Assembly: GCA_030390025.1 (NCBI GenBank)
Contig: CM059432.1
Span: 50,904,001-50,968,000, forward strand
Length of the DNA stretch: 64,000 bases
DNA from: Squalus acanthias
Taxonomy: Eukaryota
Reading direction: 5' to 3'
A program made the position numbers and the translations under genes. Of this stretch, positions 2,267 through 63,991 are shown piece after piece. The stretch's first letter is position 1. The number at the start of each line of letters is the position of its first letter. The notes beneath the pieces are model-generated. The model made no database searches. It had not been told where the DNA came from and saw only the letters and a program-made list of their open reading frames with translations.

Positions 2267-2289
2267 GTGTTTATCCTCTAAATGAGCAA

Positions 2290-2525: not shown

Positions 2526-2609
2526 GGGAGTGAAATTCAACTTCAGTGGAAAAGAAAATCGGGTGGGGTGTATAACAGGCGGCTGATTCGCTACCGTCCA
2601 TTTTCATTC

Positions 2610-3440: not shown

Positions 3441-3469
3441 TGCCCACACCAAAGTTAAACTTTACTCCC

Positions 3470-26348: not shown

Positions 26349-27750
26349 TAGAATCATAGAATCATTGAATGGTTACAGCACGGAAGAAGGCCATTCGGCC
26401 CATCAAGCCCGTGCCGACTCTCAGCTAGTCCCACTCCCCTGCCCTTTCCCCGTAGCCCTCAAATTTTTTTCCTTCAAATACTTATCCAATTCACTTTTGA
26501 AAGATAAGATTGAGTCTGCTTCCACCACCCTTTCAGGAAGTGCATTCCAGATCTTAACCACTCGCTGCGTAAAAAAGTTTTTTCTTACATCGCCTTTGGT
26601 TCTTTTGCCAATCACCTTAAATCTGTGTCCTTTGTTTCTCGACACTTCCGCCAATGGGAACAGTTTCCCTCTATCTACTCTGTCCAGACCAATCATGATT
26701 TTGAACACCTCTATCAAATCTCCTCTCAATCTTCTCTGCTCCAAGGAGAACAACCCCAGCTTCTCTAGTCTATCAACGTAGCTGAAGTTCCTCATTCCTG
26801 GAATCATTCTCGTAAATCTCTTCTGCACCCTCGCTAAGGCCTTCACATCCTTCCTAAAGTGTGGTGCCCAGAATTGAACACAATACTCCAGTTGGGGCCG
26901 AACCAGTGTATATACAGGTTCATCATAATTTCCACACTTTTGTACTCTATACCTCTATTTATGAAGCCCAGGATCCCGTAAGCCTTTTTAACTGCTTTCT
27001 CAACCTGCCCTGCCACCTTCAATGATTTGTGCACATATACCCCCAGGTCTCTCTGTCCGTGCACCCCCTTCAGGATTGTACCATTTAGTTTATATGTCCT
27101 CTCCTCATTCTTTCTACCAAAATGTATCACTTCACACTTTTCTGCGTTAAATTTCATCTGCCTCATGTCCGCCCATTTCACCAGCCTGTCTATGTCTTCT
27201 TGAAGTCTATCACTATCCTCCTGACTGCTCACTATACTTCCAAGTTTTGTGTCATCTGCAAATTTTGAAATTGTGCCCTGTACTCTCAAGTCCAAGTCAT
27301 TAATATATATCAAGAAAAGCAGTGGTCCCAGTACCGACCCCTGGGGAACACCACTGTATACCTTCATCCAGCCAGAAAAACAACCGTTCACCACTACTCT
27401 CCATTTCCTGTCACTTAGCCAATTTTGTATCCATGCTGCCACTGTCCCTTTTATTCCATGGGCTTCAACTTTGCTGGCACTTTGTCGAACACCTTTTGGA
27501 AATCCATGTACACTACGTCAACCGCATTACCCTCATCAACCCTTTCTGTTACCTCATCAAAAAACTCGATTAAGTTAGTTAAACACGATTTGCCTTTAAC
27601 AAATCCATGCTGGCTTTCCTTAATTAATCCACACTTGTCCAAGTGACTGTTAATTTTGCCCCTGATTACTGTTTCTAAAAGTTTCCCCACTACCGAGGTT
27701 AAACTGACAGGCCTGTAGTTGCTGGGTTTATCTTTACACCCTTTTTTGAA
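26349..27750 (-). mobile_element. CR1 LINE, 5'-truncated and frameshifted
   Basis: ORFs 27451..27690, 26843..27442 and 26421..26846 carry RT motifs; (ATTCTATG)n tail. Confidence 0.95.
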
Positions 27751-32952: not shown

Positions 32953-33415
32953 TGTCAGCCGTGGCACAGTTGGTAGCACCCTCGCCTCTGAGTTAGAGGG
33001 TTGTGGGTTCAAGTCCCACTCCAGAGACTTGAGCACATAAATCTAGGCTAACACTCCAGTGCAGTACTGAGGGAGTGCTGCACTGTCAAAAGTGCCGTCT
33101 TTCGGATGAGATGTTAAACCGAGGCCCGTCTACTCTCTCAGGTGGACATAAAAGATTCCATGGCACTATTTCGAAGAAGAGCAGGGGAGTTATCCCTGGT
33201 GTCCTGGCTAATATTTATCCCTCAATCAACATCCCTAAAAGAGATTATCTGGTTATTATCACATTGCTGTTTGTGGGATCTCGCTGTGCGTAAATTGGCT
33301 GCCACGTTTCCTACATTACAACAGTAACTACACTCCAAAAAGTACTTCATTGGCTGTAAAGCACTTTGGGATGTCCAGTGGTCGTGAAAGGCGCTATATA
33401 AATGTCTTTATTACT
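32953..33415 (+). mobile_element. tRNA-derived Deu-domain SINE
   Basis: A/B boxes, central domain and tail as at 14408; the best-preserved copy. Confidence 0.82.
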
Positions 33416-33532
33416 TTTTTCTTTTTTTACTGCTGCTTTGGGAATGTATGGCTTTGTCCTGTTCCTTCTGGATTGTGCATTCGGGATTCAGGCTCCAGCC
33501 TTTCTCACTCCTTGTCAGGCTGCAGAGGCGAT

Positions 33533-34936
33533 GGCCTAGAAATTCGATCGTGTCCGGAAACGAGTGAGCAAGGGTAGGGGCGCTCGCTGCACGCACTTGT
33601 TCAGGTGGTCCCAGGGAGCATGTGAAATTGGTGCTGGGACCTCATTATAATGATTCAGACATGCAGCCAGCATTCCCCACGCTATTCATTGGCTGCGCTG
33701 CTTTCTTTGAGGGGGGGTGGGGGTGGAATCAGGCGTCTCTCATGCCACATAAAGGAGAAGTGGACACTGGATGCAGACAATAGGGAAATTTCCCAGATTG
33801 GAAAAAAATTGCTGGAAGAGGTCCTGAGAGCGTACCCAGATACTTTGATACAGCATTGGAGGCTATGGTGCAGGCGGTGTACAGGGAAAGGGAGATCCTG
33901 TTTCCCCCAGGGGGCGGAAAGCCCTCCAGACAACACCGCCATTGCCATTGGAAAGAGTTTGCAGAGGAGGTCAATGCCAGGAACTTAGATTCCAGAATGT
34001 GGCTGCAATGCCAAAAGAACTTATATGACCTCACCAGAGTTGTCAACATAAGAATACTGCTCTCTTATTCTCTGCTCACATCTCCATCATCCTCAGCCTC
34101 ACTACTCACAACACTCGCCTCCCCTGCTTCCCTTCACTCTCCGACAATCATTGCACCACATTTCACTCCACCTCCTTCTCATACTCACACTCACCAATAT
34201 TGCAACCCTCACTTCCCCACACCTCTCATCTTACATACGATAGACAGACTATTTGACCATGACAGGCACATTCTCTAAACACCTCACAGGACAGTCATTA
34301 ACACACTCCCTTCTTTCTTGCAGGAGAATGTCACGCACAACTTGTAACAGCAGATGACCACCAGAGGAGGCTGAACTCGTCTGCACATTCGCTGCCCTGT
34401 GAAAGATAGCGTGCTAGCCACCACAAGTGGGGCAGGAGTCATGGCAGTGTTGAGTGGCAATGCTGGAGAAGATGTCGTGCAGCCAAAAACAGTGCAGCAT
34501 CAGCAAAAATTCTTCTCAAAAGTCAGAAATCAGTTGTAGAAGTGAGAAAACAGACCAAAAAATATCCAAAAGTTAACCAGCAGCCTAAAAGGACGAACCA
34601 GCAACAAATCTGTATGTAGTGGATGAGGCCTTTAAATAGGGCCCTTGTTGACTGTTAGTGTCATGAGATGCTGAGCGAGTTTACCATGTGACGAGTAAGG
34701 CACTGGTGCAGATCCATTTCACAAAAGGGTCCTACAACAAGCGTAGGATCCTTATTTAAATACTTGAATTATTGTTTTGAATACTTCCAGCACGCCTACA
34801 GAGGAGCCTGATCCAATATATTGGGTGGCGCACTGCCAGCGTCGGAAGGGCGCATGTGTGCCACCCAACATATTGGACGCTTAGGCGCCTGCTTTATGCC
34901 TGTAAAATGAGCATGGCGCCAACAAATTTATAGGCC
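33533..34936 (+). mobile_element. Old Harbinger derivative retaining a Myb/SANT remnant
   Basis: Termini GGCCTAGAAATT...AATTTATAGGCC. The ORF at 33856 (EAMVQAVYREREILFP...WKEFAEEV...WLQCQKNLYDLTRVV) is followed by an exon-2-like acceptor TTCTTGCAG at ~34323. Confidence 0.75.
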
Positions 34937-35734
34937 ATTATTTGCTATTACTTTTAAACTGTTATAAGTCTCGTTTCTCCAGAAACAAATCCCTGTGTGG
35001 TTGCCCTCATTACAACATTTCTTGAATTATATTTTCCGTCTTTTATAACCCCACATTTACAGAATCCCATATGAAATGAACAAAAACACCCCAGATTGTC
35101 TAGCGATCCAGTATGCAGATCTGATCAGAGCAGAACAAAAAAAAAGTTGGGTCATTTTATGGTTTGATTAAGATTATGAATAGGGTTTGGGTTTGTAGGA
35201 TGCACACATTACAACTTGTGCATTAATTTCATTCTCCTTAGTGGAAATGAGAATGATGCAAATGGCACATTCTTGTGTGAATCAAGTGCATAAACTTTCA
35301 TCAGCTTTCAAATCAGCAGAGCTGCAAAGAGCAATTTATACATTTGTGTAAAAAGTTGCTCGCTTATCTATATTGACCCAAAGACATTTTTAAAAACAAT
35401 TTTAGTTTTTATAATCTATCTTTTCTCTTTTCAGACACTGATACTGTGTATTTACAGCATTTTCCATTTTCTGGTAATTTGTCATTGGTTTCAGTGTAAA
35501 TGTACAAAGGAACCAACAAACTGTAGCACTATCTTACCAATTACATTGTGTGCAGTGCAAAACTCATCTTGTAGCTTTTTCAAGGAGAGGAGATGCTACA
35601 GTAACATATTTACCATAGTTCCAAAAGGTTACAAAGCTGGACTACAATCACTAACAGAAAATTATCTCTTTTTATTTTACAGTTGGGAATAGAAAGAATG
35701 AGCTTGAATTTACATAGCAATTTACTTATCACAC

Positions 35735-36554
35735 GCCAAAGTGGACTGGGATCAGCTACTTGTAGGAAAATCCACATCAGAGCAGTGGGAGTCATTCAGA
35801 AAGGAGATAGAGAGAGTACAGCGCCAACATGTTCCCGTAAAGGTCAAGGGTGGGACGAACAAGTCCATGGAACCCTGGATGTCAAGGGATATACAAGAAT
35901 GGATTAGGAAAAAAAGGGAGGCTTTTGGCAGATACAAAGGACTAAAAGCCCTAGAGGAGTATAGAAAGTGCAGGGGGGTACTTAAAAAAGAAATTAGGAG
36001 AGCAAAGAGGAGGCATGAAAAAACACTGGCGGGCAAAATAAAGGAAAATCCCAAGGTGTTTTATAAGTATATTAAGGGCAAGAGGATAACCAGGGAAAGA
36101 GTAGGGCCCATTAGGGACCAAAGTGGCAATCTGTGTGTAGAGCCGAAAGATGTAGGTGAGGTTTTAAATGAATATTTTGCATCTGTGTTCACTATGGAGA
36201 AGGACAATGTAGGCATAGAAATCAGGCAGGGGGATTGTGATATACTTGAACAAATTAGTATTGAGAGGGAGGAGGTACTAGCGGTTTTAGCGGGCTTAAA
36301 AGTGGATAAATCCCCAGGCCCAGACGAGATGTATCCCAGGCTGCTGTGTGAGGCAAGGGAGGAGATTGCAGGGGCTCTGACACAAATTTTCAGAACCTCT
36401 CTGGCCACAGGGGAGGTGCCAGAGGACTGGAGGACAGCTAACATAGTATCATTATTCAAGAAGGGTAGTAGGGATAAACCAGGGAATTACAGGCCAGTGA
36501 GCCTAACATCAGTGGTAGGGAAATTATTTGAAAAAATTCTGAGGGAAAGAATTA
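35735..36554 (+). mobile_element. CR1 LINE, 5' part (split by Harbinger copy A)
   Basis: ORF from 35741 (KSPGPDEMYPRLL...NYRPVSLTS); the frame LRERI|SLHLERQG continues at 40706. Confidence 0.95.
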
Positions 36555-37066
36555 GCGGTAAAAATTCACTTGGTTGCGCCTCCCGTTAGCGCCTTAAGAG
36601 GGCGCTAATGGGGCGTTAAGCCGCTAACGCCCGGGCGCAGCGCTGTTTGCGCCGCTCGAGAACTTAACTTGAGATTGCGCGGCAGCGCTAAAACTTACCG
36701 CTGCGACCACCTGCGCGCGCAGATTGTGACGTCATTCCATGGTGCAACGCCCTTGGGGCGCCCCGGAGCGGAAATTGAGTGGCGCCCCCTGCCTTACCGC
36801 CTGGCGCTTCCAACGACCGGAAGACTGGAACGTTATCAATCGGTGTGGGGCTGGGGGGGGCGCTATTTAAAGGGGGCCTCTTCCTGTCTTTTTCTGTGGT
36901 CGACATTTATGCACCACTCGTTCTGAGAGAGAGAGAGAGATTCGGAGAGAGAGAGAGAGAGACTTCTACATTGACTCAACGCTTTGTGAGGTAGTTTGTC
37001 CTAGTTCATCCTAACTTTGTTGCTACTTTAGTTGCTGTACCTCATTACTTTTCTGGCAAAGAGAAT

Positions 37067-38227
37067 ATGGGGGCTGCAATGATTGGGGGCGTCGTCCTGC
37101 TCCAGCTGAATCGGAGGATAGTGAGACGCAGACAGAGAGTGGCAATGATGGCCAGACGGAGGAGGGCCATCAGGCGCATGTACAGGAGAGCTTACCCTCC
37201 CAGGGTATATCGTGAACAGCTCTCCTACATCCATATGTCCGAGGAGCTGTGTTTGCGAAGGCTGTGATTCAGCAAGGAGGTGGTCACTGAGCTCTGCCAC
37301 CTGCTGCAGCCAGATCTGCAGCCTCAGCTGAGGTCCAGGACGTCTCTGTCGGTGGCAGTGAAGGTCACAGTGGCTTTGAACTTCTACGCCACTGGCTCAT
37401 TCCAAGCTGCTGTTGGGGACCTCGCCAATATCTCCCAGTTTGCGGTGCATCGCTGCATCCGGCAGGTCACCAATGCCCTCTTCAGAAGGAGACGAGACTT
37501 CATCTCTTTCCCTATGACCCCAGACAAGCAGCATGACCGTGCTATGGGCTTTGCGAGGGTAGCGGGCTTCCCCATGGTGCAGGGCGCCATTGACTGCACG
37601 CATGTGGCTTTGCGTGCTCCGCGAGAGAATGCAGAGGAATTCAGGAACAGAAAGGGGTTCCATTCCTTGAATGTGCAGTTGGTCTGTGACCACAGACAGG
37701 TGATTCTCGCTGTCAATGCCCACTATCCGGGCAGCTGCCACGATGCTTTCATCCTGCGCCAGACTACTGTGGCAGAACTTTTCGAGGCACCGCATCAGCC
37801 AGTTGGTTGGCTTCTGGGGGACAAGGGGTACGCATTGAGCACCTGGCTGATGACACCGCTCCGTACGCCAAACACCCCTGCTGAGCTGCGGTACCAGGAA
37901 AGCCATCAAGCAACCAGGAACATTATTGAGCGCACAATTGGCGTGCTGAAACAACGGTTCCGCTGTCTGGACCATTCCGGAGGAGCCCTGCAGTACTCGC
38001 CTGAGCAAGTTTCGAACTTCGTAGTCGTGTGCTGCATGTTGCACAACATGGCAATCCTCAGGACCCAGCCAATGCCACCAGGCCTTGTAGCACCACCAGA
38101 GGAGGAGGAGGAAGAGGAGGAACAGGACGAGGACGATGATCATCAGCAGCACCAAGGCAGGAGGGCGGCCCACAATGGTCAAACTGCAAGGGCCGTCCGT
38201 CAACGACTAATAGCAAGCCGCTTCTAG
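37067..38227 (+). pseudogene. Harbinger DDE transposase (HARBI1-like, 386 codons) with one premature stop
   Basis: Motifs GAIDCTH, GSCHDAFI, LLGDKGY, RNIIERTIG, CCMLHN and an acidic tail. TGA at 37265-37267 is CGA in copy B. Confidence 0.93.
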
Positions 38228-38521
38228 GGCCCCTGCCATTGCTACAAACACTAATCAACCCAGCACGCAACCCCTAAGCCGGCCAAGGCACCAATAATTC
38301 CAACCACCAGCCATGTATATTTTGAATACAGAAACTTATTTATTTTACAAACTCTGTGTGTGTCAATTCCTCATGACAAACTCATAGAAATAAACACAAA
38401 AATACAGTCAATAACATAACTGGTTCTCACAACCTGGAGATAATGTCCAAAACACTAAACAAAAGTTGGACCATGAACCTCGGCCTTTAATAAAAAAATG
38501 ACCAGCATTTTGGCACACCTC

Positions 38522-40344
38522 CTACTTTTTGCCCTTCGAGGGTGATCTCCTTCCCTTGCGCACTTCCCCCCTTCTAACCCTACTGCTCCTCTGTAATGGG
38601 ACCTCAGTGGCTGCAGCAAGGCTGGTGGAAGGCTGCTGCTCGTCAGACCCTGACACTGCAGATGCCCCTGAAGGACGGCCTCGACCACTTCTGGGCCTGG
38701 AGGGCCCGGCTGCAGACTGCACCAACTCTGCATGGGCGGCAGCAGTCTGTCCTACAGGCGGTGGCAAGTGCAGTGGAGAAGTGACAGTGTTGGCAGCAGG
38801 AATGCTGTCATCGTGAGAGAGGACAGCAACTCCCTGCTCGCCCGACACACTGGCACTCCCACGGGGCAGCACTTCAGCATCCGGAGCAATTTGCCTGAGA
38901 ACAGATTGCTGGCCTGCTGCGGCGCGGTGACAGCCCCGGGGACATGTGCACGAACCATCGAGGATGGCAGCAGTCAGTGCTCGCGTGGCCTCAATCTGAG
39001 TCTGCATGAGAGCAGTCTCAGATGGGTTCCTGGCAACCAGTGACTGAATTGCAGCACTAAGCTTTAGTGTGGCATTCGCCTGTGCTACAGCGAAGTGCTC
39101 CACACTCCTTGCCAGTGCCTCAATGCATTCGGGCACCCTTCCCACTGCACCCATGAGCTCAGTGTGCATGCCCACCGCCTGGCTGTTCATTTCTGCAATC
39201 AGCCGCTCCTCCTCTGCGTCCATTGCAGTAGGAGTGTCTGGCATACTCTCCCTCTGGGGAGAAGGCTCCCGTTCTTCCCTCCCCCCCCCATGGCGTTGCT
39301 GCAGCCCGCTGGGTCCTGGAGCTTCACCATCATCAGCCCCTTCCCCCCTGCTCCCCTCCGGGGAAGGCGTGTTCCCAGTGTGGCCATGGGCTTCCTCGGG
39401 AGAGGGTGGCACTGATGCTCCGGCTTCCTCTTCCTCCTCAGCTGCAGCATCACTTCCAGTGGCAGCTTCAGGGCCCGTCTCCTCAGCTGGTGAATCACCA
39501 TCTGAAAGCAGGGAGGTACAAGAGTGGCTTTAGCGTGAGGACAGGGTGGCAGTAAGGGAGGAATAAGTGCAGCGAGTTAGCAAGTTGGATTGAAAGTGTC
39601 AAAGGCTGGTATTGTGTGGGACAAGTGGAAGGACAGAGGACAAAAAGGTGATGACCTTACCATTGCTGTCCACAACGGGGTCGGCGTCCCCAGTGGCGAC
39701 GGGACCGATCACCCGGCTTGCCACAATCCTGTGGACGCGCTCCTCCAGATCGCTGAGGGGTTGCAGCTGAAGCCGCCCTCCACCCGTCCGTTGCTGCTGT
39801 CTCCGATTATGAGCCAGCTTAGCCTGCAAGAAAAAGGACAGCATCTGAGTAAATATACAGCCATGGTCTTGCCTGATGTGCCTCCCATAGGTGAATAGCC
39901 CTTACAATATGCAGCCATGGTCTTGCCTGATGTGCCTCCCATAGGTGAATAGCCCTTACTGTATGCAAAGTGTGGAATGTGTGTGTGTGTTTGATGAAAG
40001 GGCCATAGGTGTTGCATGAGTGTTGTGCATTGGGGTTTTAAGACCCTCTGGCCATAGAGTGAGGTTGAGATGGAGGGATGGAGAGGTATTGAGAAAAAGC
40101 CACTCACCCTGACGACCCGAGTGAGGTCGTTGAACTTTTTGCGGCACTGAACATGGGTCCTGGGCACCATGCTCCTGGAGGAGACGCTCTGAGCCACCTC
40201 CCTCCACACTCTTCTGAACTCGCGTGGCAAAGGCCTCCTGCCACTCTCCGGGAACAGCATGCATCGTCTGCGCTCCACTGCGTCAACCAGAGCATCCAAG
40301 GCCCGCTCGGTGAAGCGATGAGCGCGTTCTCTCACCCTCTCCAT
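38522..40344 (-). CDS. Harbinger Myb/SANT-like DNA-binding protein, 3 exons (40344-40108, 39823-39661, 39501-38522), 459 aa
   Basis: SANT domain (RFTERALDALVDAV...WREVA...QCRKKFNDL); canonical GTGAGT/GTAAGG donors and pyrimidine-CAG acceptors; exons sum to 1380 nt in an open frame. Confidence 0.88.
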
Positions 40345-40705
40345 GCTTGGCAGCAAAATGGATTACAGGTCTCTCCAGGCTGAGATTCAAGGCTGCAATG
40401 AGCAGGGTGTGGCTGGGGAGCAAGTGGCCCCCCCCCGCTTTAAGAAGTGTCCGGCGCCAGTGTGTCTGTGTTCCCTCGCTAACTGGCAGCAGCTGTGCTG
40501 CGCTCGTGCGCTGAGGTAGCGCCTCACTCCTAGGCCTTTGCGCCTTAAGAGAGGTGTGCAGCGCCTAATTTAGCGCTCCACTCACCTCCCGGGGCGGTAA
40601 AAGTGAAGTTTCCTGTCAGTGCCGATAATTAGCGCCAGGCGCTAATATTTGCGCTCGGACGATATTTGCGCCCCAAAAGGGGCGCGACCTAATTTCTACC
40701 CCTTA

Positions 40706-42025
40706 GTCTCCACTTGGAGAGGCAAGGATTAATCAAGGATAGTCAGCATGGCTTTGTCAGGGGGAGATCATGTCTAACCAATTTGATTGAATTTTTCGAG
40801 GGGGTGACCAGGTGTGTGGATGAGGGTAGTGCAGTTGATGTAGTCTACATGGACTTCAGTAAGGCGTTTGACAAAGTCCAGCATGGGAGACTGGTCAAGA
40901 AGGTAAGAGCCCATGGGACCCAGGGCAATTTGGCACATTGGATCCAAAATTGGCTTAGTGGCAGGAGGCAGAGGGTGATGGTCGAAGGTTGTTTTTGTGA
41001 CTGGAAGCCTGTGTCCAGTGGTGTACCGCAGGGATCGGTGCTGGGTCCCTTGCTGTTTGTAGTGTACATTAATGATTTGGATATGAATGTAGGAGGTATG
41101 ATCAGTAAGTTCGCAGATGACACGAAAATTGGTGGAGTGGTAGTGAGGAGGGAAGCCTCAGGCTACAGGACGATATAGATGGGTTGGTCAGATGGGCAGA
41201 ACAGTGGCAAATGGAATTTAACCCTGAAAAGGGTGAGGTGATGCATTTTGGGATGACTAACAAAGCAAGGGAATACACAATGAATGGTCGGACCCTAGGA
41301 AGGACAGAGGATCAGAGGGACCTTGGTGTGCATGTACATAGATCCCTGAAGGCAGCAGGACAGGTAGATAAGGTGGTTAAAAAGGCATATGAGATACTTG
41401 CCTTCATTAGCCGAGGCATAGAATATAAGATCAGGGAGGTTATGATGGAGCTGTACAAAACGCTAGTTAGGCCACAGCTGGAATACTGTGTGCAGTTCTG
41501 GTCGCCACACTATAGGAAGGATGTGATTGCATTGGAGAGGGTGCAGAGGAGATTCACCAGGATGTTACCTGGGCTGGAGTGCTTCAGCTATGAGGAGAGA
41601 CTGGACAGGCTGGGGTTGTTTTCCTTGGAGCAGAGAAGGCTGAGGGGGGACCTGATTGAGGTGTACAAAATTATGAGGGGCATAGATAGGGTAGATAGAA
41701 AGGAACTTTTCCCCTTAGTAGAGGGGTCAATAACCAGGGGGCATAGTTTCAAGGTAAGGGGCAGGAGGTTTAGAGGGGATTTGAGGAAAAACTTTTTCAC
41801 CCAGAGGGTGGTTGGAATCTGGAACTCACTGCCTGAAAGGATGGTAGAGGCAGGAACCCTCACAACATTCAAGAAGCATTTAGATGAGCATTTGAAATGC
41901 CATAGCATACAAGGCTATGGACCAAGTGCTGGAAAATGGGATTAGAATAGACAGGGCTTGATGGCCGGCGCGGACAAGATGGGCCGAAGGGCCTCTTTCT
42001 GTGCTGAAAAACTCTATGACTCTAT
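40706..42025 (+). mobile_element. CR1 LINE, 3' part (spacer between the two Harbingers)
   Basis: ORFs 40714..41178 and 41184..41945 (RT with a frameshift near 41145); the (TCTATGAC)n tail resumes at 46315. Confidence 0.95.
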
Positions 42026-42383
42026 GGGGGTAGAAATTAGGTCGCGCCCCATTTGGGGCGCAAATATCGTCCGCGCGCAAATATTAGCGCCTGGCGCTAA
42101 TTATCGGCACTGACAGGAAACTTCACTTTTACCGCCCCGGGAGGTGAGTGGAGCGCTAAATTAGGCGCTGCACACCTCTCTTAAGGCGCAAAGGCCTAGG
42201 AGTGAGGCGCTAACTCAGCGCACGAGCGCAGCGCAGCTGCTGCCAGTTAGCGCGGTAACACAGACACACTGGCGCCGGACACTTCTTAAAGCGGGGGGGG
42301 CCACTTGCTCCCCAGCCACACCCTGCTCATTGCAGCCTTGAATCTCAGCCTGGAGAGACCTGTAATCCATTTTGCTGCCAAGA

Positions 42384-44347
42384 ATGGAGAGGGTGAGAGA
42401 ACGCGCTCATCGCTTCACCGAGCGGGCCTTGGATGCTCTGGTTGACGCAGTGGAGCGCAGACGATGCATGCTGTTCCCAGAGAGTGGCAGGAGGCCTTTG
42501 CCACGCGAGTTCAGAAGAGTGTGGAGGGAGGTGGCTCAGAGCGTCTCCTCCAGGAGCATGGTGCCCAGGACCCATGTCCAGTGCCGCAAAAAGTTCAACG
42601 ACCTCACTCGGGTCGTCAGGGTGAGTGGCTTTTTCTCAATACCTCTCCATCCCTCCATCTCAACCTCACTCTATGGCCAGAGGGTCTTAAAACCCCAATG
42701 CACAACACTCATCCAACACCTATGGCCCTTTCATCAAACACACACACACATTCCACACTTTGCATACAGTAAGGGCTATTCACCTATGGGAGGCACATCA
42801 GGCAAGACCATGGCTGCATATTGTAAGGGCTATTCACCTATGGGAGGCACATCAGGCAAGACCATGGCTGCATATTGTAAGGGCTATTCACCTATGGGAG
42901 GCACATCAGGCAAGACCATGGCTGTATATTGACTCAGATGCTGTCCTTTTTCTTGCAGGCTAAGCTGGCTCATAATCGGAGACAGCAGCAACGGACGGGT
43001 GGAGGGCGGCTTCAGCTGCAACCCCTCAGCGATCTGGAGGAGCGCGTCCACAGGATTGTGGCAAGCCGGGTGATCGGTCCCGTCGCCAGTGGAGACGCCG
43101 ACCCCGTTGTGGACAGCAATGGTAAGGTCATCACCTTTTTGTCCTCTGTCCTTCCACTTGTCCCTCACAATACCAGCCTTTGACACTTTCAATCCAACTT
43201 GCTAACTCGCTGCACTTATTCCTCCCTTACTGCCACCCTGTCCTCACGCTAAAGCCACTCTTGTACCTCCCTGCTTTCAGATGGTGATTCACCAGCTGAG
43301 GAGATGGTCCCTGAAGCTGCCACTGGGAGTGATGCTGCAGCTGAGGAGGAAGAGGAAGCCGGAGCATCAGTGCCACCCTCTCCCGAGGAAGCCCATGGCC
43401 ACACTGGGAACACGCCTTCCCCGGAGGGGAGCAGGGGGGAAGGGGCTGATGATGGTGAAGTTCCAGGACCCAGCGGGCTGCAGCAACGCCATGGGGGGGG
43501 GAGGGAAGAACGGGGGAGCAGGGGGGAAGGGGCTGATGATGGTGAAGTTCCAGGACCCAGCGGGCTGCAGCAACGCCATGGGGGGGGGAGGGAAGAACGG
43601 GAGCCTTCTCCCCAGAGGGAGAGTATGCCAGACACTCCTAATGCAATGGACGCAGAGGAGGAGCGGATGATTGCAGAAATGAACAGCCAGGCGGTGGTCA
43701 TGCACACTGAGCTCATGGGTGCAGTGGGAAGGGTGCCCGAATGCATTGAGGCACTGGCAAGGAGTGTGGAGCACTTCGCTGTAGCACAGGCGGATGCCAC
43801 ACTAAAGCTTACTGCTGCAATTCAGTCACTGGCTGCCAGGAACCCATCTGAGCCTGCTCTCATGCAGACTCAGATTGAGGCCACGCGAGCACTGACTGCT
43901 GCCATCCTCGATGGTTCGTGCACATGTCCCCGGGGCTGTCACCGCGCCGCAGCAGGCCAGCAATCTGTTCTCAGGCAAATTGCTCCGGATGCTGAAGTGC
44001 TGCCCCGTGGGAGTGCCAGTGTGTCGGGCGAGCAGGGAGTTGCTGTCCTCTCTCACGATGACAGCATTCCTGCTGCCAACACTGTCACTTCTCCACTGCA
44101 CTTGCCACCGCCTGTAGGACAGACTGCTGCCGCCCATGCAGAGTTGGTGCAGTCTGCAGCCGGGCCCTCCAGGCCCAGAAGTGGTCGAGGCCGGCCTTCA
44201 GGGGCATCTGCAGTGTCAGGGTCTGACAAGCAGCAGCCTTCCACCAGCCTTGCTGCAGCCACTGAGGTCCCATTACGGAGGAGCAGTAGGGTTAGAAGGG
44301 GGGAAGTGCGCAAGGCAAGGAGATCACCCTCGAAGGGCAAAAAGTAG
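42384..44347 (+). CDS. Harbinger Myb/SANT-like protein, 3 exons (42384-42620, 42959-43121, 43281-44347), 488 aa
   Basis: Same splice sites as copy A; 1467 nt in an open frame, including an in-frame 87-bp duplication. Confidence 0.88.
42769..42930 (+). repeat. 54-bp tandem repeat x3 in Myb intron 1 (x2 in copy A)
   Basis: Unit GTAAGGGCTATTCACCTATGGGAGGCACATCAGGCAAGACCATGGCTGCATATT starts at 42769, 42823 and 42877. Confidence 0.95.
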
Positions 44348-44658
44348 GAGGTGTGCCAAAATGCTGGTCATTTTTTTATTAAAGGCCGAGGTTCATGGCC
44401 CAACTTTTGTTTAGTGTTTTGGACATTATCTCCAGGTTGTGAGAACCAGTTATATTATTGACTGTTTTTTTGTGTTTATTTCTATGAGTTTGTCATGAGG
44501 AATTGACACACACAGAGTTTGTACAATAAATAAGTTTCTGTATTCAAAATATACATGGCTGGTGGTTGGAATTATTGGTGCCTTGGCCGGCTTAGGGGTT
44601 GCGTGCTGGGTTGATTCGTGTTTGTAGCACTGGCAGGGGCCCTAGAAGCGGCTTGCTA

Positions 44659-45801
44659 TTAGTCGTTGACGGACGGCCCTTGCAGTTTGACCATTGTGGG
44701 CCGCCCTCCTGCCTTGGTGCTGCTGCTGATCATCGTCCTCGGCCTGTTCCTCCTCTTCCTCCTCTCCTCTTGTGGTGCTGCAAGGCCTGGTGGCATTGGC
44801 TGCGTCCTGAGGATTGCCATGTTGTGCAACATGCAGCACACCACTACGAATTTGGAAACTTGCTCAGGCGAGTACTGCAGGGCTCCTCCGGAATGGTCCA
44901 GACAGCGGAATCGTTGTTTGAGCACGCCGATTGTGCGCTCAATAATGTTCCTCGTTGCTTGTTGGCTTTCCTGGTACCGCAGCTCAGCAGGGGTGTTTGG
45001 CGCACGGAGCGGTGTCATCAGCCAAGTGCTCAATGCGTACCCCTTGTCCCCCAGAAGCCAACCGACTGGCTGATGCGGTGCCTCGAAAATTTCTGCCACA
45101 GTACTCTGGCGCAGGATGAAAGCATCGTGGCAGCTGCCCGGATAGTGGGCATTGACAGCGAGAATCACCTGTCTGTGGTCACAGACCAACTGCACATTCA
45201 AGGAATGGAACCCCTTTCTGTTCCGGAACTCCTCTGCATTCTCTCGCGGAGCACGCAAAGCCACATGCGTGCAGTCAATGGCGCCCTGCACCATGGGGAA
45301 GCCCGCTACCCTCGCAAAGCCCATAGCACGGTCATGCTGCTTGTCTGGGGTCATAGGGAAGGAGATGAAGTCTCGTCTCCTTGTGAAGAGGGCATTGGTG
45401 ACCTGCCGGATGCAGCGATGCACCGCAAACTGGGAGATATTGGCGAGGTCCCCAACAGCAGCTTGGAATGAGCCAGTGGCGTAGAAGTTCAAGGCCACTG
45501 TGACCTTCACTGCCACCGACAGAGACGTCCTGGACCTCAGCTGAGGCTGCAGATCTGGCTGCAGCAGGTGGCAGAGCTCAGTGACCACCTCCTTGCTAAA
45601 TCGCAGCCTTCGCAAACACAGCTCCTCGGACATGTGGATGTAGGAGAGCTGTTCACGATATACCCTGGGAGGGTAAGCTCTCCTGTACATGCGCCTGATG
45701 GGCCTCCTCCGTCTGGCCATCATTGCCACTCTCTGTCTGCGTCTCACTATCCTCCGATTCAGCTGGAGCAGGACGACGCCCCCAATCATTGCAGCCCCCA
45801 T
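44659..45801 (-). CDS. Harbinger DDE transposase, 380 aa; catalytic core intact, C-terminal tail frameshifted
   Basis: All DDE motifs are in one ORF. A 1-nt deletion in the GAG run near 44765 shifts the tail; the ancestral stop is at 44642. Confidence 0.9.
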   Translation of the reverse strand: MGAAMIGGVVLLQLNRRIVRRRQRVAMMARRRRPIRRMYRRAYPPRVYREQLSYIHMSEELCLRRLRFSKEVVTELCHLLQPDLQPQLRSRTSLSVAVKVTVALNFYATGSFQAAVGDLANISQFAVHRCIRQVTNALFTRRRDFISFPMTPDKQHDRAMGFARVAGFPMVQGAIDCTHVALRAPRENAEEFRNRKGFHSLNVQLVCDHRQVILAVNAHYPGSCHDAFILRQSTVAEIFEAPHQPVGWLLGDKGYALSTWLMTPLRAPNTPAELRYQESQQATRNIIERTIGVLKQRFRCLDHSGGALQYSPEQVSKFVVVCCMLHNMAILRTQPMPPGLAAPQEERRKRRNRPRTMISSSTKAGGRPTMVKLQGPSVND

Positions 45802-46329
45802 ATTCTCTTTGCCAGAAAAGTAATGAGGTACAGCAACGAAAGTAGCAGCAAAGTTAGGATGAACTAGGCAAAACTACCTCACAAAGCGTTGAGTCAATGT
45901 AGAAGTCTCTCTCTCTCTCTCTCCGAATCTCTCTCTCTCTCTCAGAACGAGTGGTGCATAAATGTCGACCACAGAAAAAGACAGGAAGAGGCCCCCTTTA
46001 AATAGCGCCCCCCCCCAGCCCCAGACCGATTGATAACGTTCCAGTCTTCCGGTCGTTGGAAGCGCCAGGCGGTAAGGCAGGGGGCGCCACTCAATTTCCG
46101 CTCCGGGGCGCCCCAAGGGCGTTGCACCACGGACTGACGTCACAATCTGCACGCGCAGGTGGTCGCAGCGGTAAGTTTTAGCGCTGCCGCACAATCTCAA
46201 GTTAAGTTCTCGAGCGGCGCAAACAGCGCTGCGCCCGGGCGTTAGCGCCTTTACGCCCCATTAGCGCCCATTTAAGGCGCTAACGGGAGGCGCAACCAAC
46301 TGAATTTTTACCCCTATGACTCTATCTCT

Positions 46330-48403
46330 CAAAAATATCTCAAAGGTGATACTGGGCTCTAGTTGCAGACCCCTTGGACTGCCGCATGACGTGGAGATGG
46401 AGCAGAGGCAGCAAAGGGACAAGTTGCTTGCAGAGGGAGGAGGAGGAGGAAGAGGAGGAAGCAGAAGAGGAAAAAGCAGAAGAGGAGGAAGCAAAAGAGG
46501 AGGAAGCAGAAGAAGAAGAAGCGGAAGGAAGGAGGCAACCAAGGCAGCCCCTTTCTGGCCAGGATATCTGGGATTGAATCATCCGCCTCCGGTACCAGTG
46601 ACCACAACCCCAATTCCCCTTTCAACGTTTGTCCCACACTTTACCTTCCCTCTGTTACTGACCAGCACAGCATCCTCTTGGCCAAGAGCAAACTTTCCAA
46701 TCCAGCTTTACCCATATAAGCATCAAATATTACATTAAAAAATCAACTAATCAACCTTGTGCATTCCCTTAGTGAGTGTCTTGCATGTGTCTTTGCCTAT
46801 CATAGTGCTTTTACGTAGTGCTACCCCAGTGGCTGCAGCATGGCTGATGCAAGGCTGCTGACTTTCAGTGGGAGAGTCTACAGATGGACTTGGAGGACCA
46901 CCTCGAGGAGCTGATGGCTGGGAATGTGATATCGAGTGATGGTGTTTCTTCTTCTTCTTCTTCTTCTTCTTCTTCACTCTCCTCTCCCTCTTCTTGGTCA
47001 ACCACTCGCTGGGCAGGCTGGATTTCTTGGGGGTCTGAAATGAGAAAGGCACAGGGTAGGGTAGTGGTGATGGGAGGCTGTAAAGCAAGAGGTGCATGCT
47101 TACATCATGTGTAGATTGTAAATCAGAAGAGATTGAGGGGGAAGTGGGATGTTAAAAGTGGATAACATATGAGGATACCAGCATCTTGTATTCTTTCAGC
47201 CCCGCCTCTGGCCAAGGTCTCAACCATACCCCTGCCAAGAATGGCCAGCACCATCTCCTCCATGGGGGTGAGGTGAAGCTAGGAATGTGAGGTGTTCCTC
47301 ATGTTTGGTAGAGATTGTTGGTAGAAACATAGAAACATAGAATCTAGGAGCAGGAGTAGGCCATTCGGCCCGTCGAGCCTGCTCCACCATTCAATACGAT
47401 CATGGCTGATCATCCAAATCCAGTACCCTGTCCCTGCTTTAATCCCCACAGTACACATATCCCACCCTACCCCCGTAACCCCACGTATTTAATTCCCCCT
47501 AACATATCCCATCCTATCCCCATAACCCCACATATTTAATCCCCCCCTAACACTAAGGGTCAATTTATCATAGCCAAATCAACCTAACCCGCACATTTTT
47601 GGACTGTGGGAGGAAACCGGAGCACCCGGAGGAAACCCACGCAGACACGGGGAGAATGTGCAAACTCCACACAGACAGTCACCCGAGGTCAGATTCGAAC
47701 CCGGGTCTCTGGCGCTGTGAGGCACCAGTGCTAACCACTATGCCACCGTGCTGCCCGATGGGTGATGGCGGTGGGGGGGGGGGGGGAGGGGTGGCGGTGG
47801 TGGTGTCATGCATTGAGCAGTGTGTGAGGCTAGTGGTGCAGTTGGTAGGTGATGGCTTTTGAAGCTGCATTCACTGATCTGACCACTCGTCTGAGGTCAT
47901 GGCACTGGAGTCACATCCTGGGTGTGACACTGCTGGCTGTGACCACCTCGGCGATCTGGTCCCACATCCTTCTTTCTGGAGGACCTCCTGGCCCCCTGTG
48001 GGTAGAGGACTTCTCTTCCAGTGTTGACCCCCTGCACGAAGCTCGAGTGCTGCGTCCGAGATCCTGCATGTCCTTTCCCTGGCCTATTGAGCCATTTGGG
48101 TTCATGCTGAAGCACTTTTACCACTTTTCATCAGCAGAAGGAAGCTCACCTTTAGGAGGTGCAGACTGCCTTTAAGAGAAGCAGGCTAGCTTTAAGTTTC
48201 GCTCGAACAACGCGAAGTTCGGCCCGCTTCTGAACACACACACAGCCTATAAGCAGCGCGTTCAGCACTAGGCTGTGTACTGCAATCGTTATAATTAGCA
48301 GGCAGCAGGAAGTTGATGTGCTGCCTGGGCTCTTTGAATGGGCACGGGATATCTCGCATTGTGGTGCCCACACCTGTTTATCGCGTTATCCAATTTCTAG
48401 GCC
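46330..48403. mobile_element. Degenerate Harbinger of another family (transposase tail on +, Myb remnant on -)
   Basis: Poly-Glu tail then RQPRQPLSGQDI on +. On -, QQPCISHAAATGVALRKS and MWDQIAEVVTASSVTPR. Right terminus AATTTCTAGGCC. Confidence 0.7.
47322..47756 (-). mobile_element. tRNA-derived V-domain SINE (HE1-like) with CR1-type tail
   Basis: A box TGGCATAGTGG, B box GGTTCGAATC, V-domain GTGGAGTTTGCACATTCTCCCCGTGTCTGCGTGGGTTTCCTCC; the 3' end matches the CR1 3' UTR at 20820-20940. Confidence 0.85.
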
Positions 48404-50440: not shown

Positions 50441-51446
50441 TACATCCTCCAGCAAATTACACAAAAAGTGAGTAATTATCATATTCCAAATGTTAATTGG
50501 AATGATCAAAAATGTTACTATCAAAAATATAATGCAAGAAACACTGTTTATGTTGCTTCTCCGGGGTTTCCATGGATCTTCTACCTAAGTTGCAATGGAT
50601 GATTGGGAGAACCCCCATGGAAATTCTCCACCAAACCATTTAACAAAAAAACCTTAAAAATTCAGCTTTCAAAAATCTATATTTAAAGTCTTTTTTTGTA
50701 ATGATCACATGAAAAATTCAGTTGATTCCCCTTTAAGTGGTCATTTATATCTTCCCCGAACCAGCCTGATCCTTAGCGCCTTTTTAATATGAATGAACAG
50801 AGCACACAACTCTCGGAATTGTCATGCATTGTACCATGAATTTTAATATTTAATTACATGGAACAAAAATATACCCTGTTATTTCCTTTAAAGGACAGGA
50901 CAGGACACACTAAAATTAATGTCCAAATTATCAAACTCCAAGCATTTGCTTAGAAACCAGAAATGGCAGAAACTCAAGACACTTTCTTCAGTTCAGGTCA
51001 TGTTCCTATCAGGGTTATTTGCATAACTGAGGTTTTCACATGAATTAAGGTCACACTGTCGTCTTTGGTCCCAAAATCCTGCGGATGTCATTATTATCTT
51101 AGATGGCAATGATGTGATTAAAGAAAGAAAGAAAACAGGATGAAGCGATCAAAGTGTAATTAAAGTAATGACACCATCGTGCTCTGTAAGAAATCTGACA
51201 TAATCCGCCCAATACTTCAACAAATTAAAGCATCTGGAAATAACTCAGTGCTCTGAATGAAAATAGAGCATCTAGAAAATGAATCATCTAAAGTACTGTG
51301 CGGATGAGAAACAATAACATGTCCTCCTCATCTCCAACTTAGAATGAGCTGAGATTGTTTCAACTGTAAATCTAAAATGACCTCTTGACAACTCATCACT
51401 GCAGGCAAGTGTGTGAAGAACCAGAAATGCAACTAAACTGACTAAT

Positions 51447-52460
51447 GTGACTAATGCTTCCAATTTCCACCCTTCCCTCACCTTCACATGGTCCATCTCC
51501 GACTCTTCCCTTCCCTTCCTCGACTTCTCCATCTCCATCTCTGGGGATAGGTTATTGACTAACATTCACTACAAGCCCACTGACTCCCACAGCTACCTGG
51601 ACTACACTTCCTCCCACCCCGCCTCCTGTAAGGACTCTATTCCATTCTCCCAGTTTCTCCGTCTCCGCCGCATCTGCTCTGATGATGCCACCTTCCATAC
51701 CAGTGCTTCCGACATGTCTTCCTTTTTCCTCAACCGAGGATTCCCCTCTACTGTGGTCGACACGGCCCTCGACCGTGTCCGTTCTATCTCCCGCACTTTT
51801 GCCCTCACCCCTGCCCCTCCCTCCCGGAACCACGATAGAGTTCCCCTTGTCCTCACCTTTCACCCCACCAGCCTCCACATTCAACGGATCATCCTCCGCC
51901 ATTTCCGCCACCTCCAGCGTGATCCCACCACCAAACACATCTTCCCCTCACCTCCCCTTTCAGCATTCCGCAGGGACCGCTCCCTCCGCGACACCCTAGT
52001 CCACTCCTCTACCACCCCCTGCACCCCTTCCCCTTCGCCCGGCACCTTCCCGTGCACGCGCAGGAGATGCTACACATGCCCTTACACCTCCCCTCTTCCC
52101 ACTGTCCAGGGCCCCAAACACCCCTTCCAGGTGAAACAGCGATTTACTTGTACTTCCTGCAATTTAGTATACTGTATTCGCTGCTCACGATGTGGTCTCC
52201 TCTACATTGGGGAGACCAAACGCAGATTGGGTGACCGCTTTGCGGAACACCTCCGTTCAGTCCGTAATGGGGACCCCGAGCTCCCGGTGGCCTGTCACTT
52301 TAATTCACCGCTTCACTCCCACTCTGACCTCACCGTCCTCGGCCTATTACACTGTTCCACGGAGGCGCAGCGTAAGCTCGAGGAACAGCACCTCATCTTT
52401 CGTTTAGGCACGCTACAGCCCTCTGGACTCAATATCGAGTTCAACAATTTTAGATCATAA
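51447..52460 (+). CDS. Penelope-like RT C-terminus/thumb plus GIY-YIG endonuclease (5'-truncated)
   Basis: FHPSLTFT...LPFLD...YKPTDSHSYL...SQFLRLRRICS...LVYCIRC..CGLLYIGET...RFAEH...GLN. Confidence 0.92.
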   Translation: MTNASNFHPSLTFTWSISDSSLPFLDFSISISGDRLLTNIHYKPTDSHSYLDYTSSHPASCKDSIPFSQFLRLRRICSDDATFHTSASDMSSFFLNRGFPSTVVDTALDRVRSISRTFALTPAPPSRNHDRVPLVLTFHPTSLHIQRIILRHFRHLQRDPTTKHIFPSPPLSAFRRDRSLRDTLVHSSTTPCTPSPSPGTFPCTRRRCYTCPYTSPLPTVQGPKHPFQVKQRFTCTSCNLVYCIRCSRCGLLYIGETKRRLGDRFAEHLRSVRNGDPELPVACHFNSPLHSHSDLTVLGLLHCSTEAQRKLEEQHLIFRLGTLQPSGLNIEFNNFRS

Positions 52461-56634: not shown

Positions 56635-57250
56635 TTAGTTTAAACCCTTCCCAACAGCACTAGCAAACACTTCCCCTAGGACAGCGGTCCCGGCCCTGCC
56701 CAGGTGCAGACCGTCCGGTTTGTACTGGTCCCACCTCCCCCAGAACCGGTTCCAATGTCCCAGGAATTTGAATCCCTCCCCCTTGCACCATTCCTCTAGC
56801 CACGTATTCATTTGAAATATCCTCCTATTTCTACTCTGACTAGCACGTGGCACTGATAGCAATCCTGAGATTACTACCTTTGAGGTCCTATTTTTTAATT
56901 TACCTCCTAACTCCCTATATTCTGCTTTTAGGACCTCATTCCCTTTTTTACCTATACCGTTGGTGCCTATGTGCACCACGGCAGCTGGCTGTTCGCCCTC
57001 CCCCTCCAAAATGTTCTGTAGCCGCTCCGAGACGTCCTTGACCCTTGCACCAGGGAGGCAGCACATCATCCTGGAGTCTCGGTTGCGGCCGCAGAAACGC
57101 CTATCTATTCCCCTTACAATTGAGTCCCCTATCGCTATAGCTCTTCCACTCTTTTTCCTCCCAGCCTGTGCAGCAGAGCCACCCATGGTGCCAGGAAGTT
57201 GGCTGCTGCTGCCTTCCCCTGATAAGTCATCCCCCACAACAGTATCTAAA
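56635..57250 (-). CDS. CR1 ORF1 C-terminal SGNH/GDSL esterase domain (5'-truncated)
   Basis: IGDSIVRG, LPGA, HIGTN and DGLH blocks. Confidence 0.88.
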
Positions 57251-58004
57251 GAGCAGCTTCTAACGTTGCTGCCTCCCTGGAGGGTAGATCCTAAATAAAG
57301 CAGCAAGATCTGTTAGTTTCAACAAATCAAGATATATACAAATTAATGGGAGCACAGATTGAAACTCGCCCTGTGACTCCAAGGTACACATCCATGAAAA
57401 CGTAAGTTTGGACATCCCTGCAGTATGCTACAAAATCTGTGAACTGCCTGACATTGTCAACATTCTATGTACATTCAATATTTCAATACTTTTCTTCTGC
57501 TTGCACAACAAAATGCCCTTTGGCCAGTCACTGGGTTTGGCACATGTATCTGGCTTCCTGCTCTAAAAGATTGGACATCCCTACACTAAGTCAATAAAAA
57601 CCCGCTATCCTGGCAGAAGACAAATCCCTGACCCCTTCAATATATGCACCATCATGGATGAACAGTGGTCTGCATTGCAATTTTCCTAGGAGACTATGGC
57701 AACTCCAGTGGTATCTAAGTGGAGTCCTCATAGGCACAGTGGAAGTATTTCTCGTGAATACTCACACTGCTGCTATAGATACTTTGGGGGCCCAACATTT
57801 ACACTCGGTGCCAGCTGCTACCTGCTTGGAGAACAGATGCATGTAACTTTGATCCGGTGATTCTTAAATCACATAGATGCCCAAATTTCTGTTCTCAGAA
57901 AGATTAGTGGACGTATTGAGGGAGTGCCCAGCAGCAGGGGCAGGTATATAGTAGTTAGATGGCTGGTTCTTGTGACAATACCCTATGCGGACCATAAACT
58001 ATCT

Positions 58005-58414: not shown

Positions 58415-59832
58415 GAGGGGAATTTTAACATGGTTGAGCGCGTGGGTTTGGGTGCGGGGTTAAATTGGGGAAAATGACAGCACGTCGGGAAGCTGGATCC
58501 AACCCGCCGACTTCCGCATTTCACTTGAGCGCGTCAGGCTGCATGCGCGCAACCCTCTCTTGAGAGGCGGGTTGCAAATTAACTTATGTTAATCACTCAA
58601 TTGGAGCGATATTTAAACACACTTTTGAGTTTAACGTTGGGTCCATGGGATTCCCGGACTTCCTGAAACTCGCCAGTGAAAGTAAGGCAAGAACACAGCG
58701 GCAATTGAAGAGGGTCAATCAATTTCATGGAAACATGACACTGTTGTCCCTGTCCCCACCATCTGCTCTTGCTCACTTGTGACGTGTGAGTCACCGGGTG
58801 AAAACCTTACTATCTGTTTATGTGGTCCCACCAAGGTACATGTATCTGAGCTTGTGCATGGTATGCATGAGTCCTGTGATGGTGCACCCTCAGAAGGACT
58901 CAGCTCCTCTGAGGATCATCAGCGGCAACCTCCACTGACTTCTGCTGCACGTGTGAAGGCCCTGTTAGAGATAAAAGACATGATTTAGTCCTCGCAGGGA
59001 AAGAATATGTTTCAAGTTATCATTATGAAGATTATCATATTTCACTCGCTGTTGAAATCAAGTCAACATGACTGAGTGCCGGATGACATGTGGGCTGCTA
59101 ATATTTAATTGTGTCACCAGGTAGCTGGGAGCTCCCCGTTACGTGGATGAGGGTGAGTAGCAGTGGTGGATGGATAGGGATGTGAGGAAGTGCATAGACA
59201 GAGAGGGATGGATGCACCTGCAAGGTAAGTGGGTGTGTGGAATGATGTGATGGAGTAGGCTTGAGAAAGCAAAGTGAGAGGGTTGGGATGTTGCGCACAG
59301 CAAGATTTAGGTGAATATGCAACTGTACTTGCCTTTCCTGACCTGGTTAGGTCATTTAACCGCTTCTTGCACTGCATCCAGGTGCGTGGCACTCAGCTCC
59401 TGCTGCTCACTTCCTGAGCAACCTCTAAACACGCGTTCTTCATTTCTGCCTCAGGTTTTCTCTTCCCACTGCTGGGGAATAGTATCTCCCTCCGGCTCCT
59501 CACAGCCCCCAGCAACACATCAAGAGAGGCATCAGTGAACCAGGGCGCAGCCTTTGCCCATCTTGAATCCATTGTTGAAGATGCTCCTCTCTTCTTCTCA
59601 ACTTCAACTCCTCCAAATTTGGATTGGGCCTTTAAATACTGCAGTTGAGATTGCGTCATGCGGGTCCTCATCACGGCTGATACCGCGGATTGGACAGAAA
59701 CCCAGAAGTAAAATGTTAGTGAGGTGGCTGAGTTAAAAAGTCACTGACAGACATGCTGAACATACTTCTGGGTTTCCCACGCGATATCGGACACCCCGGC
59801 TCCCAGCGTGTCTCCCAGTTAATATCGGGGTC
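58415..59832 (-). mobile_element. Old Harbinger derivative with Myb/SANT pseudogene (~59572-59333)
   Basis: MDSRWAKAAPWFTDASLDVLLGAVRSRREILFP...EVSSRS*VPRTWMQCKKRLNDLTRSGK; element boundaries approximate. Confidence 0.75.
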
Positions 59833-62939: not shown

Positions 62940-63125
62940 TATCATGCAAGCCAATGCTCGATAACCTGGAAGCATCCATGATGCATTCATTTTGCGCCAA
63001 TCCACTGTGCCTGGATTTTTGAAGGTACAGAAAGACAGGATGGATGGCTGCTGGCTACTTAAGGAAGACCTTCTTGGTCTGTAGATCCTGGTGAGTGGAT
63101 ATGAGCGAATAGGGAAGAGATTCAT
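62940..63125. pseudogene. Harbinger transposase remnants joined in opposite orientation
   Basis: On +, IMQANAR*PGSIHDAFILRQSTV...GWLL; on -, RSYPLTRIYRPR (N-terminal-like). Confidence 0.6.
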
Positions 63126-63444
63126 TTGTGAAGCCTGACTTTAAGGGCCTCCAACCTAGTTTCTTCCATGTCTTCATCCTTCCTCTTCATCATATAAGAA
63201 TAGAGGTATTCATATTGAGAATCCATATTTACAGTGCAAAGCAGTACTTTGACCAAAACTGAGAGAAACTAGTCGCAAAAGTAATGAAGAGATCGAAATG
63301 CAGGCAACGTAACTTTACCCTTGCGTAGCAGCAACCAAAATGGTCTCCTCAATGTGGCGAACACCTCAGGGATACCTTACTGGTGCTCCGACTGTCACTT
63401 ATATAGTGCTGGTCATTTTTTGAGGAGGAAGTTGGGGGAAACAG

Positions 63445-63991
63445 AGAGTCATAGAGTCATAACGGCACAGAAGGAGGCCATTTGGCCCATTTAGTCCATG
63501 CCGGCTCTCTGTAGAGCAATCCAGTCAGTCCCATTCCCCCACTCTATCCCCATAGCCCTGCAAGTTTATTTCCCTCAAGTGCCTATCCAGTCTCCCCTTG
63601 AAAACATTGAGTGTCTCCGCTTCCACCACTTCCGTCGGCAGCGAATTCCAAGTCCTCACCACTCGCTGCGTAAAAAAGTTTTTCCTCACGTCCCCCCTGT
63701 ATCTCTTGCCCAAAACCTTAAATCTGTGTCCCCCAGTCCTTGTACCATCAATTAGTGGGAACAGCCTTTCCCTGGCTAGCCTATCCAAACCCGTCATAAT
63801 CTTGTACACCTCTATCAAATCACCCCTCAACCTCCTTTGCTCTAATGAAAACAAATCCAGCTTCTCCAACCTGTCCTTGTAGCTAAGATCCCCCATCCCC
63901 GGAACCATTCTGGTAAATCTCCTCTGCACCCTCTCAAGGGCCTTCACATCCTTCCTAAAGTGTGGTGACCAGAACTGGATGCAATACTCCA
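63445..63991 (-). mobile_element. CR1 LINE 3' fragment
   Basis: ORF 63525..63947; (GACTCTAT)n tail. Confidence 0.92.

Follow-up and report, generated by a model that had tools for sequence, protein, structure and literature searches.

In the 64,000 nucleotides of Squalus acanthias contig CM059432.1 analysed here (assembly GCA_030390025.1, positions 50,904,001 to 50,968,000 of the forward strand; hereafter the window, within which all positions below are counted), two near-identical DNA transposons of the PIF/Harbinger type, A and B, lie in inverted orientation inside a single long interspersed nuclear element (LINE) of the CR1 clade. Their arms, which an initial scan found to be 98-99% complementary, and the 1324-bp spacer between them span 9760 bp; the structure was checked in the assembled sequence. 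We think it likely that this arrangement goes back to two independent, target-guided insertions of members of an abundant Harbinger family, from which the 9.8-kb mirror image probably arose incidentally, without representing a new kind of element. The features of the locus are as follows.

35708-36554, forward strand: 5' piece of the CR1 LINE, 5'-truncated, open reading frame 2 (ORF2) ahead of the reverse transcriptase (RT) core; its open frame of 282 codons matches other CR1 copies in the window (left boundary approximate)
36555-40702, forward strand: Harbinger copy A, 4148 bp, target site duplication (TSD) TTA, terminal inverted repeats (TIRs) of about 12 bp
37067-38227, forward strand: transposase gene of A, a reading frame of 386 codons with a premature TGA at codon 67 (37265), a CpG-type change
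38522-40344, reverse strand: Myb/SANT gene of A, three predicted exons (40344-40108, 39823-39661, 39501-38522), open over 460 codons
40703-42026, forward strand: spacer with the CR1 RT region (RVT_1, E 4e-20), stop codon at 41945, 3' untranslated region and first tail units
42027-46314, reverse strand: Harbinger copy B, 4288 bp; insertion site ACTC[TAT]GACT, within the CR1 tail
42384-44347, forward strand: Myb/SANT gene of B, three predicted exons (42384-42620, 42959-43121, 43281-44347) in an open frame
44644-45801, reverse strand: transposase gene of B, a reading frame open over 345 codons that include the acidic residues, with a 1-bp frameshift near 44764
46315-46326, forward strand: second target copy of B and remaining CR1 tail

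The global alignment of A and B comprises 4069 matches and 77 substitutions (98.1% identity), and each copy has a duplication of its own, which bears out an earlier, sequence-only reading of the locus as two near-identical inverted Harbingers inside one CR1 LINE. The length difference of 140 bp given there stands as a net value, but the alignment reveals five indels (87 bp, 54 bp and three of 1 bp: +1, -1, -1) instead of three; both large ones are extra tandem units in B, one a duplication of 87 bp and the other a third copy of a 54-bp unit. TTA on either side of A (36552-36554 and 40703-40705) is its target duplication, in which the 5' piece of the CR1 terminates. The duplication of B can be read as the 3-bp TAT plus an extra G at the inner end, or as the 4-bp TATG. 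The substitutions consist of 30 transitions and 47 transversions; only 11 differences are of CpG type, with such losses divided almost equally between the arms (6 in A, 5 in B). An excess of transversions is unusual for neutral decay in vertebrates.

The host element possesses an RT domain, a 5' truncation and a 3' tail of short units, features from which we take it to belong to the CR1 clade, the 8-bp tail unit being presumably typical of that clade. Excision of A together with one TTA brings the two CR1 pieces into one reading frame, and the position at which A is inserted is uninterrupted in a further two CR1 copies (7.3-8.8 kb and 26.4-27.8 kb) elsewhere in the window; after excision of B the tail reads as tandem (ACTCTATG)n units. 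The earlier statement that removal of both elements restores the CR1 is thus correct for the frame at the site of A and for the tail at the site of B, but the RT frame is broken again within the spacer by a frameshift near 41130-41150, which had been missed. Separate duplications and the rejoining of the CR1 upon removal of both copies agree with the two separate insertions of a young family that had been proposed. At least 10 further CR1-like copies are present in the window, and matches to the coding pieces of the host CR1 make up 22% of it.

Genes and termini of the two Harbingers

Inside the TIRs of each arm, a transposase gene and a Myb/SANT gene lie on opposite strands and converge. The transposase of B matches DDE_Tnp_4 (PF13359, E 4e-38) in Pfam, and the acidic residues D176, D226, D252 and E288, present in both copies, are shared by 31, 26, 31 and 20 of 37 homologues, respectively. 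The splicing of the Myb/SANT genes is predicted from GT-AG splice sites and the open frame; exon 1 of the B gene matches Myb_DNA-bind_5 (PF13873, E 1e-9), and this gene contains the 87-bp tandem duplication in frame (43426-43601) and the additional 54-bp unit in intron 1 (42761-42931). A DDE transposase, a Myb/SANT gene, TIRs and a 3-bp duplication (in B, TAT plus G or 4 bp) constitute the equipment of an autonomous-type PIF/Harbinger element (PHIS), and because the genes are located between TIRs with a duplication, they belong to a transposon and not to a domesticated HARBI1 gene. Both copies are now decaying: A by its premature stop and a damaged left end, B by the C-terminal frameshift, which alters the last ~40 residues. 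The left TIR of A reads GCGG, with a G-to-C change at position 2, where B and four short relatives (listed below) have G; both TIRs of B begin with GGGG. Over the first 12 bases the TIRs pair at 11 positions in B and at 10 in A, and they are short in comparison with the 25-50 bp quoted for PIF/Harbinger elements (PMC9179366).

A protein search with the transposase gave 238 matches, and the 120 listed are mostly from sharks and rays and annotated as HARBI1-like ('putative nuclease HARBI1'). The best among those listed are from Pristiophorus japonicus (70% over 89% of the query and 63% over 100%). Near-identical copies in other species were found neither among the matches listed, where 70% is the maximum, nor among shorter proteins (4 matches, best 60%); with nothing above 70% among those listed, the protein collection did not yield the A/B family itself. 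A protein search with Myb exon 3 returned no matches. In a transposase tree built from 32 matches, hand-picked so that the taxa were represented, A and B group within a clade of 26 rows, all of them from sharks and rays (support 100/98). Sequencing runs of at least 8 other organisms (15 of 20 rows) contain 0.35-0.47 of the sampled words of 33400-42026, approximately the share of one arm: arm A represents 0.48 of this query, and those of its words that are shared with B represent 0.28. For several of these runs the contigs amount to 0.8-1.0 billion letters. The sharing could reflect kinship among sharks or horizontal transfer; we regard it as a lead only and do not use it as evidence.

Divergence between the two copies

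In a local hop the new element is an exact copy of its donor, and subsequent changes are neutral. The transposase genes do not follow this expectation. Over 344 codons they differ by 15 synonymous and 10 non-synonymous codon changes, a ratio of non-synonymous to synonymous divergence (dN/dS) of 0.21 (p 1.2e-4), and the signature holds under five other mutation-bias settings, including transition and CpG bias (p 0.0004-0.002); had the synonymous sites, too, decayed neutrally at the non-synonymous rate, only about 3 differences would be expected there. The transposase halves thus diverged in lineages that were still transposing, and the simple local hop considered in the sequence-only reading is weakened, because neutral decay after copying cannot produce a signature of purifying selection. 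A pair that differs by neutral decay alone describes the Myb half only, in which 5 synonymous and 14 non-synonymous differences over 460 codons give a dN/dS of 0.94. As synonymous divergence is uneven between the two genes (6.1% in the transposase vs 1.4% in the Myb gene, p 0.002), A and B are mosaic.

Outside the exons, the introns differ by 0.7% and the non-coding ends by 2.9% and 2.0%. Viewed along the arm, the Myb introns together with the first two exons (39502-40344, 42384-43280) are 0.6-1.2% apart, and the transposase with the left end 2.3-2.9%. A long conversion tract between the arms was considered and rejected, since the longest identical run (340 bp, p 0.10) is not unusual. With the four short relatives as outgroups, derived states are assigned to both copies at 20 differing columns, a weak polarisation given that the relatives are only 55-91% alike; at at least 4 of these columns the states of A and of B both occur in other family members. 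Judged from these sequence comparisons, B cannot be regarded as a mere duplicate of A. The mosaic may reflect exchange among lineages, or a hop with later replacement of the transposase half, or conversion of the inner arms.

Target sites, abundance and origin of the pair

The target motif A-N-N-Y-[TSD]-R-N-N-T was fixed before it was applied to the sites in the window, where the six insertions of the family match it at 20 of 24 positions (p 4e-6); a target preference, offered earlier as one possible cause of the pairing, has therefore held up. The site of B is a perfect match spelled by the octamer of the CR1 tail. Since ~1.7% of the window positions fit the full motif, it is loose and accounts for the exact base of insertion more than for the closeness of A and B. 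The duplications at the six sites are TTA, TAT (twice), TAC, TAA and GTG, so that TWA, the strict PIF/Harbinger duplication, occurs at only 2 of 6. Three (A-C/T-TCTATG)n CR1 tails in the window (42011-42025, 26355-26375, 63440-63460) spell the full motif at TAT, and one only holds an insertion. Taken alone, the idea that shark CR1 LINEs offer this family a ready-made landing pad in their octamer tail is tentative, and we incline to doubt it; if it were right, CR1 tails would be expected as insertion sites throughout the genome.

Elements with the termini of A and B number six and occupy 18.8% of the window. Four lie outside the palindrome, and older Harbinger-like material is present as well:

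4001-4878: short non-coding relative with the same termini, duplication TAT
9570-10631: short non-coding relative with the same termini, duplication TAC
10836-11596: short non-coding relative with the same termini, duplication TAA
24987-25879: short non-coding relative with the same termini, duplication GTG; 90-91% like A and B at its left end
46330-46930: decayed older Harbinger-like remnant on the right flank, with an acidic transposase-like C-terminus and a 73% match to the end of the Myb gene of A; identified partly by resemblance
33533-34940, 59330-59563, 61400-63070: further older Harbinger-like remnants; all four remnants are Myb-like or transposase-like, with approximate bounds

In the reading that we favour, a CR1 LINE would have inserted and then decayed, and two elements from a young and abundant PIF/Harbinger family with two genes would have entered it separately by cut-and-paste, each insertion generating its own 3-bp duplication. 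B would have taken the perfect preferred target in the tail octamer and A a three-of-four match. At least in the transposase half, the two would stem from separate active sub-lineages, while the Myb half would be closer through exchange among lineages or later conversion. The inverted orientation would amount to a coin toss, from which the palindrome would arise as a by-product, presumably without function.

Several observations weigh against this reading. A single chance inverted pair at the distance of A and B needs ~2,100-3,000 full-length copies, assuming a genome of 3-6 Gb, and 3,000-4,300 if the estimate is restricted to the orientation of A and B; that the family is abundant enough for chance adjacency is plausible from its density in the window. 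The site of A matches the motif at three of four positions, with a mismatch at position -1. The Myb genes of A and B differ at only 22 of 1823 bases (~1.2%), as expected from a recent common donor. The inner halves of the arms contain 27 differences vs 50 in the outer halves (p 0.012), a gradient that conversion from arm to arm could give. Finally, the full-length comparison covers A and B alone, with no third copy among them.

The discrepancy between the two halves can be explained in another way. On this alternative, one copy hopped locally over 1.3 kb, and the transposase half of one of the two was afterwards replaced from a distant member of the family, by gap repair or ectopic conversion. 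The near-neutral Myb gene with its little-diverged introns and the unequal synonymous divergence of the two genes are in its favour, local hopping is described as common among cut-and-paste elements (PMC3016246), and closely linked inverted Ds pairs are reported to have arisen at 1% in rice (PMC3429523). It requires a second event, however, and the non-coding ends diverge more than the introns, which together make it unlikely in our judgement.

Much less probable is a functional palindrome that is maintained by exchange between its arms, with inversion of the spacer and a read-through transcript whose 4-kb fold-back RNA silences the family. The hairpin silencer in this idea is modelled on maize Mu killer, which is said to act in this manner. 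If the pair did make a silencing RNA, this would make it a naturally occurring transposon-killer locus of a cartilaginous fish. We give similarly little credence to the broader proposal that CR1 tails serve as landing pads through which the commonest retrotransposon gathers Harbingers and that the resulting inverted pairs exchange arms and yield such RNA. The high identity of the arms and the greater similarity of their inner halves would suit a maintained structure, as would the 11% share of spacer inversion among the rearrangements recorded for inverted Ds pairs (PMC3429523). Nevertheless, the substitutions and indels are spread over the full length of the arms and leave no significant identical tract, the spacer has kept the orientation that it originally had with respect to the left CR1 piece, and the region between the two genes of an arm has poly(A)-like signals on both strands. 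Nor was a host exon found among 243 open reading frames of at least 55 codons outside the repeats that were scanned with Pfam, a scan that short exons would escape and that left out 0.7 kb of sequence on the right of B. Its one match above the curated cut-off is a GDSL esterase in a 225-codon frame at 56638-57312 (reverse strand). A DUF1619_N match at 12093-12311 was rejected as a host exon, being weak, below the cut-off and without clear exon borders. A 347-codon frame at 51417-52457 (forward strand) has a weak GIY-YIG match below the cut-off; we take the GIY-YIG and GDSL frames to be probably remnants of a Penelope-like element and of a LINE ORF1, respectively.

Some physical consequences of the arrangement may be considered separately from any function. 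Inversion of the spacer by recombination between the arms is possible, and so is a fold-back RNA, which would need a host transcript or read-through beyond the poly(A)-like signals that lie where the two genes converge. A cruciform, also suggested in the sequence-only reading, is unlikely to form in double-stranded DNA with a 1.3-kb spacer: cruciform extrusion is described as dropping steeply with spacer length and divergence, and in yeast a 1.5-kb spacer lowered rearrangements ~31-fold, although repeats of this kind can still pair when the DNA is single-stranded (PMC10164571).

We likewise consider it improbable that the palindrome is an assembly artefact or a haplotype chimera, in which A and B from different haplotypes or loci were joined via the CR1 spacer. 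The setting of repeats within repeats and the unusually many transversions (47/77) could raise this suspicion in a structure known from the assembly alone. Yet a false fold-back would yield identical arms without separate duplications, the bias of the differences towards synonymous sites is unlike base-calling errors, and the CR1 is collinear over its three pieces. Furthermore, five runs of one organism (two studies) contain 0.76-0.81 of the sampled words of 33400-42026, which is no test of the junctions, and one of the runs may itself be the source. The weakest proposal, an outer-end composite transposon with the CR1 RT as cargo, is hardly credible in spite of near-perfect inverted repeats at the outer ends (38/40 first bases), because the outer flanks are TTA vs TAT with no single shared duplication, both outer ends are of the same end type and that of A is damaged, the RT cargo is partial and frameshifted, the CR1 continues beyond both outer ends, so that a composite unit has not moved, and macrotransposition from outermost ends of Ac/Ds is described for the other arrangement of a pair, inverted pairs giving sister-chromatid events (PMC3429523).

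Relation to known systems

By its structure the A/B family is of PIF/Harbinger type, with targets that are closest to those of NuwaII but looser. As described for NuwaII (PHIS; PMC4482050), it has two ORFs for a DDE transposase and a Myb/SANT protein, a length near 4.2-4.7 kb, TIRs starting with GG and a 3-bp duplication with preferred flanks, the NuwaII target C|TNA|G resembling the Y-[TSD]-R of the A/B family. The six sites, a small sample, have C at -1 in 3/6, G at +1 in 3/6, TNA in 2/6 and the full NuwaII motif in 0/6, and the 12 species given for that group include no shark (PMC4482050). Zebrafish Harbinger3_DR (cited in PMC3016246) likewise is a two-gene element with a palindromic target preference wider than its duplication, but is set apart by its described target, AAACACCWGGTCTTT with CWG (PMC3016246): a CWG duplication, as in NuwaI or Harbinger3_DR-like elements, occurs at 0/6 sites of the A/B family. 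Harbinger-Snek of sea kraits is comparable as a vertebrate Harbinger family that reaches a very high density, 8-12% of the assembly, and is accompanied by short non-autonomous derivatives; it is described as horizontally acquired (PMC8437027), in contrast to A and B, whose transposase tree fits a shark and ray lineage.

Young two-gene Harbingers of sharks seem to have been little described. A survey of fishes reported none from the elephant shark (PMC9179366), and a literature search, with most subscription journals outside its scope, revealed no description of the A/B family or of CR1 tails with a Harbinger inserted in them. A preference of Harbingers for CR1 tails as targets is a testable idea.

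The locus is a clean case of two phenomena that are both already known, nested insertion and an inverted transposon pair. Like the inverted Ds pairs of rice (PMC3429523) and inverted Alu pairs (PMC3215922, PMC10164571), A and B belong to one family, are inverted and lie close together; unlike the Ds pairs, which arose by local hopping in tissue culture (PMC3429523), they form 4-kb arms that are natural and not clonal. Close inverted pairs are reported to undergo spacer inversion or deletion and to be lost over time (PMC3429523, PMC3215922, PMC10164571). Such pairs are described as depleted in humans (PMC3215922), and that inverted arms of 4 kb with 98% identity persist in a shark genome is a second idea that can be tested.

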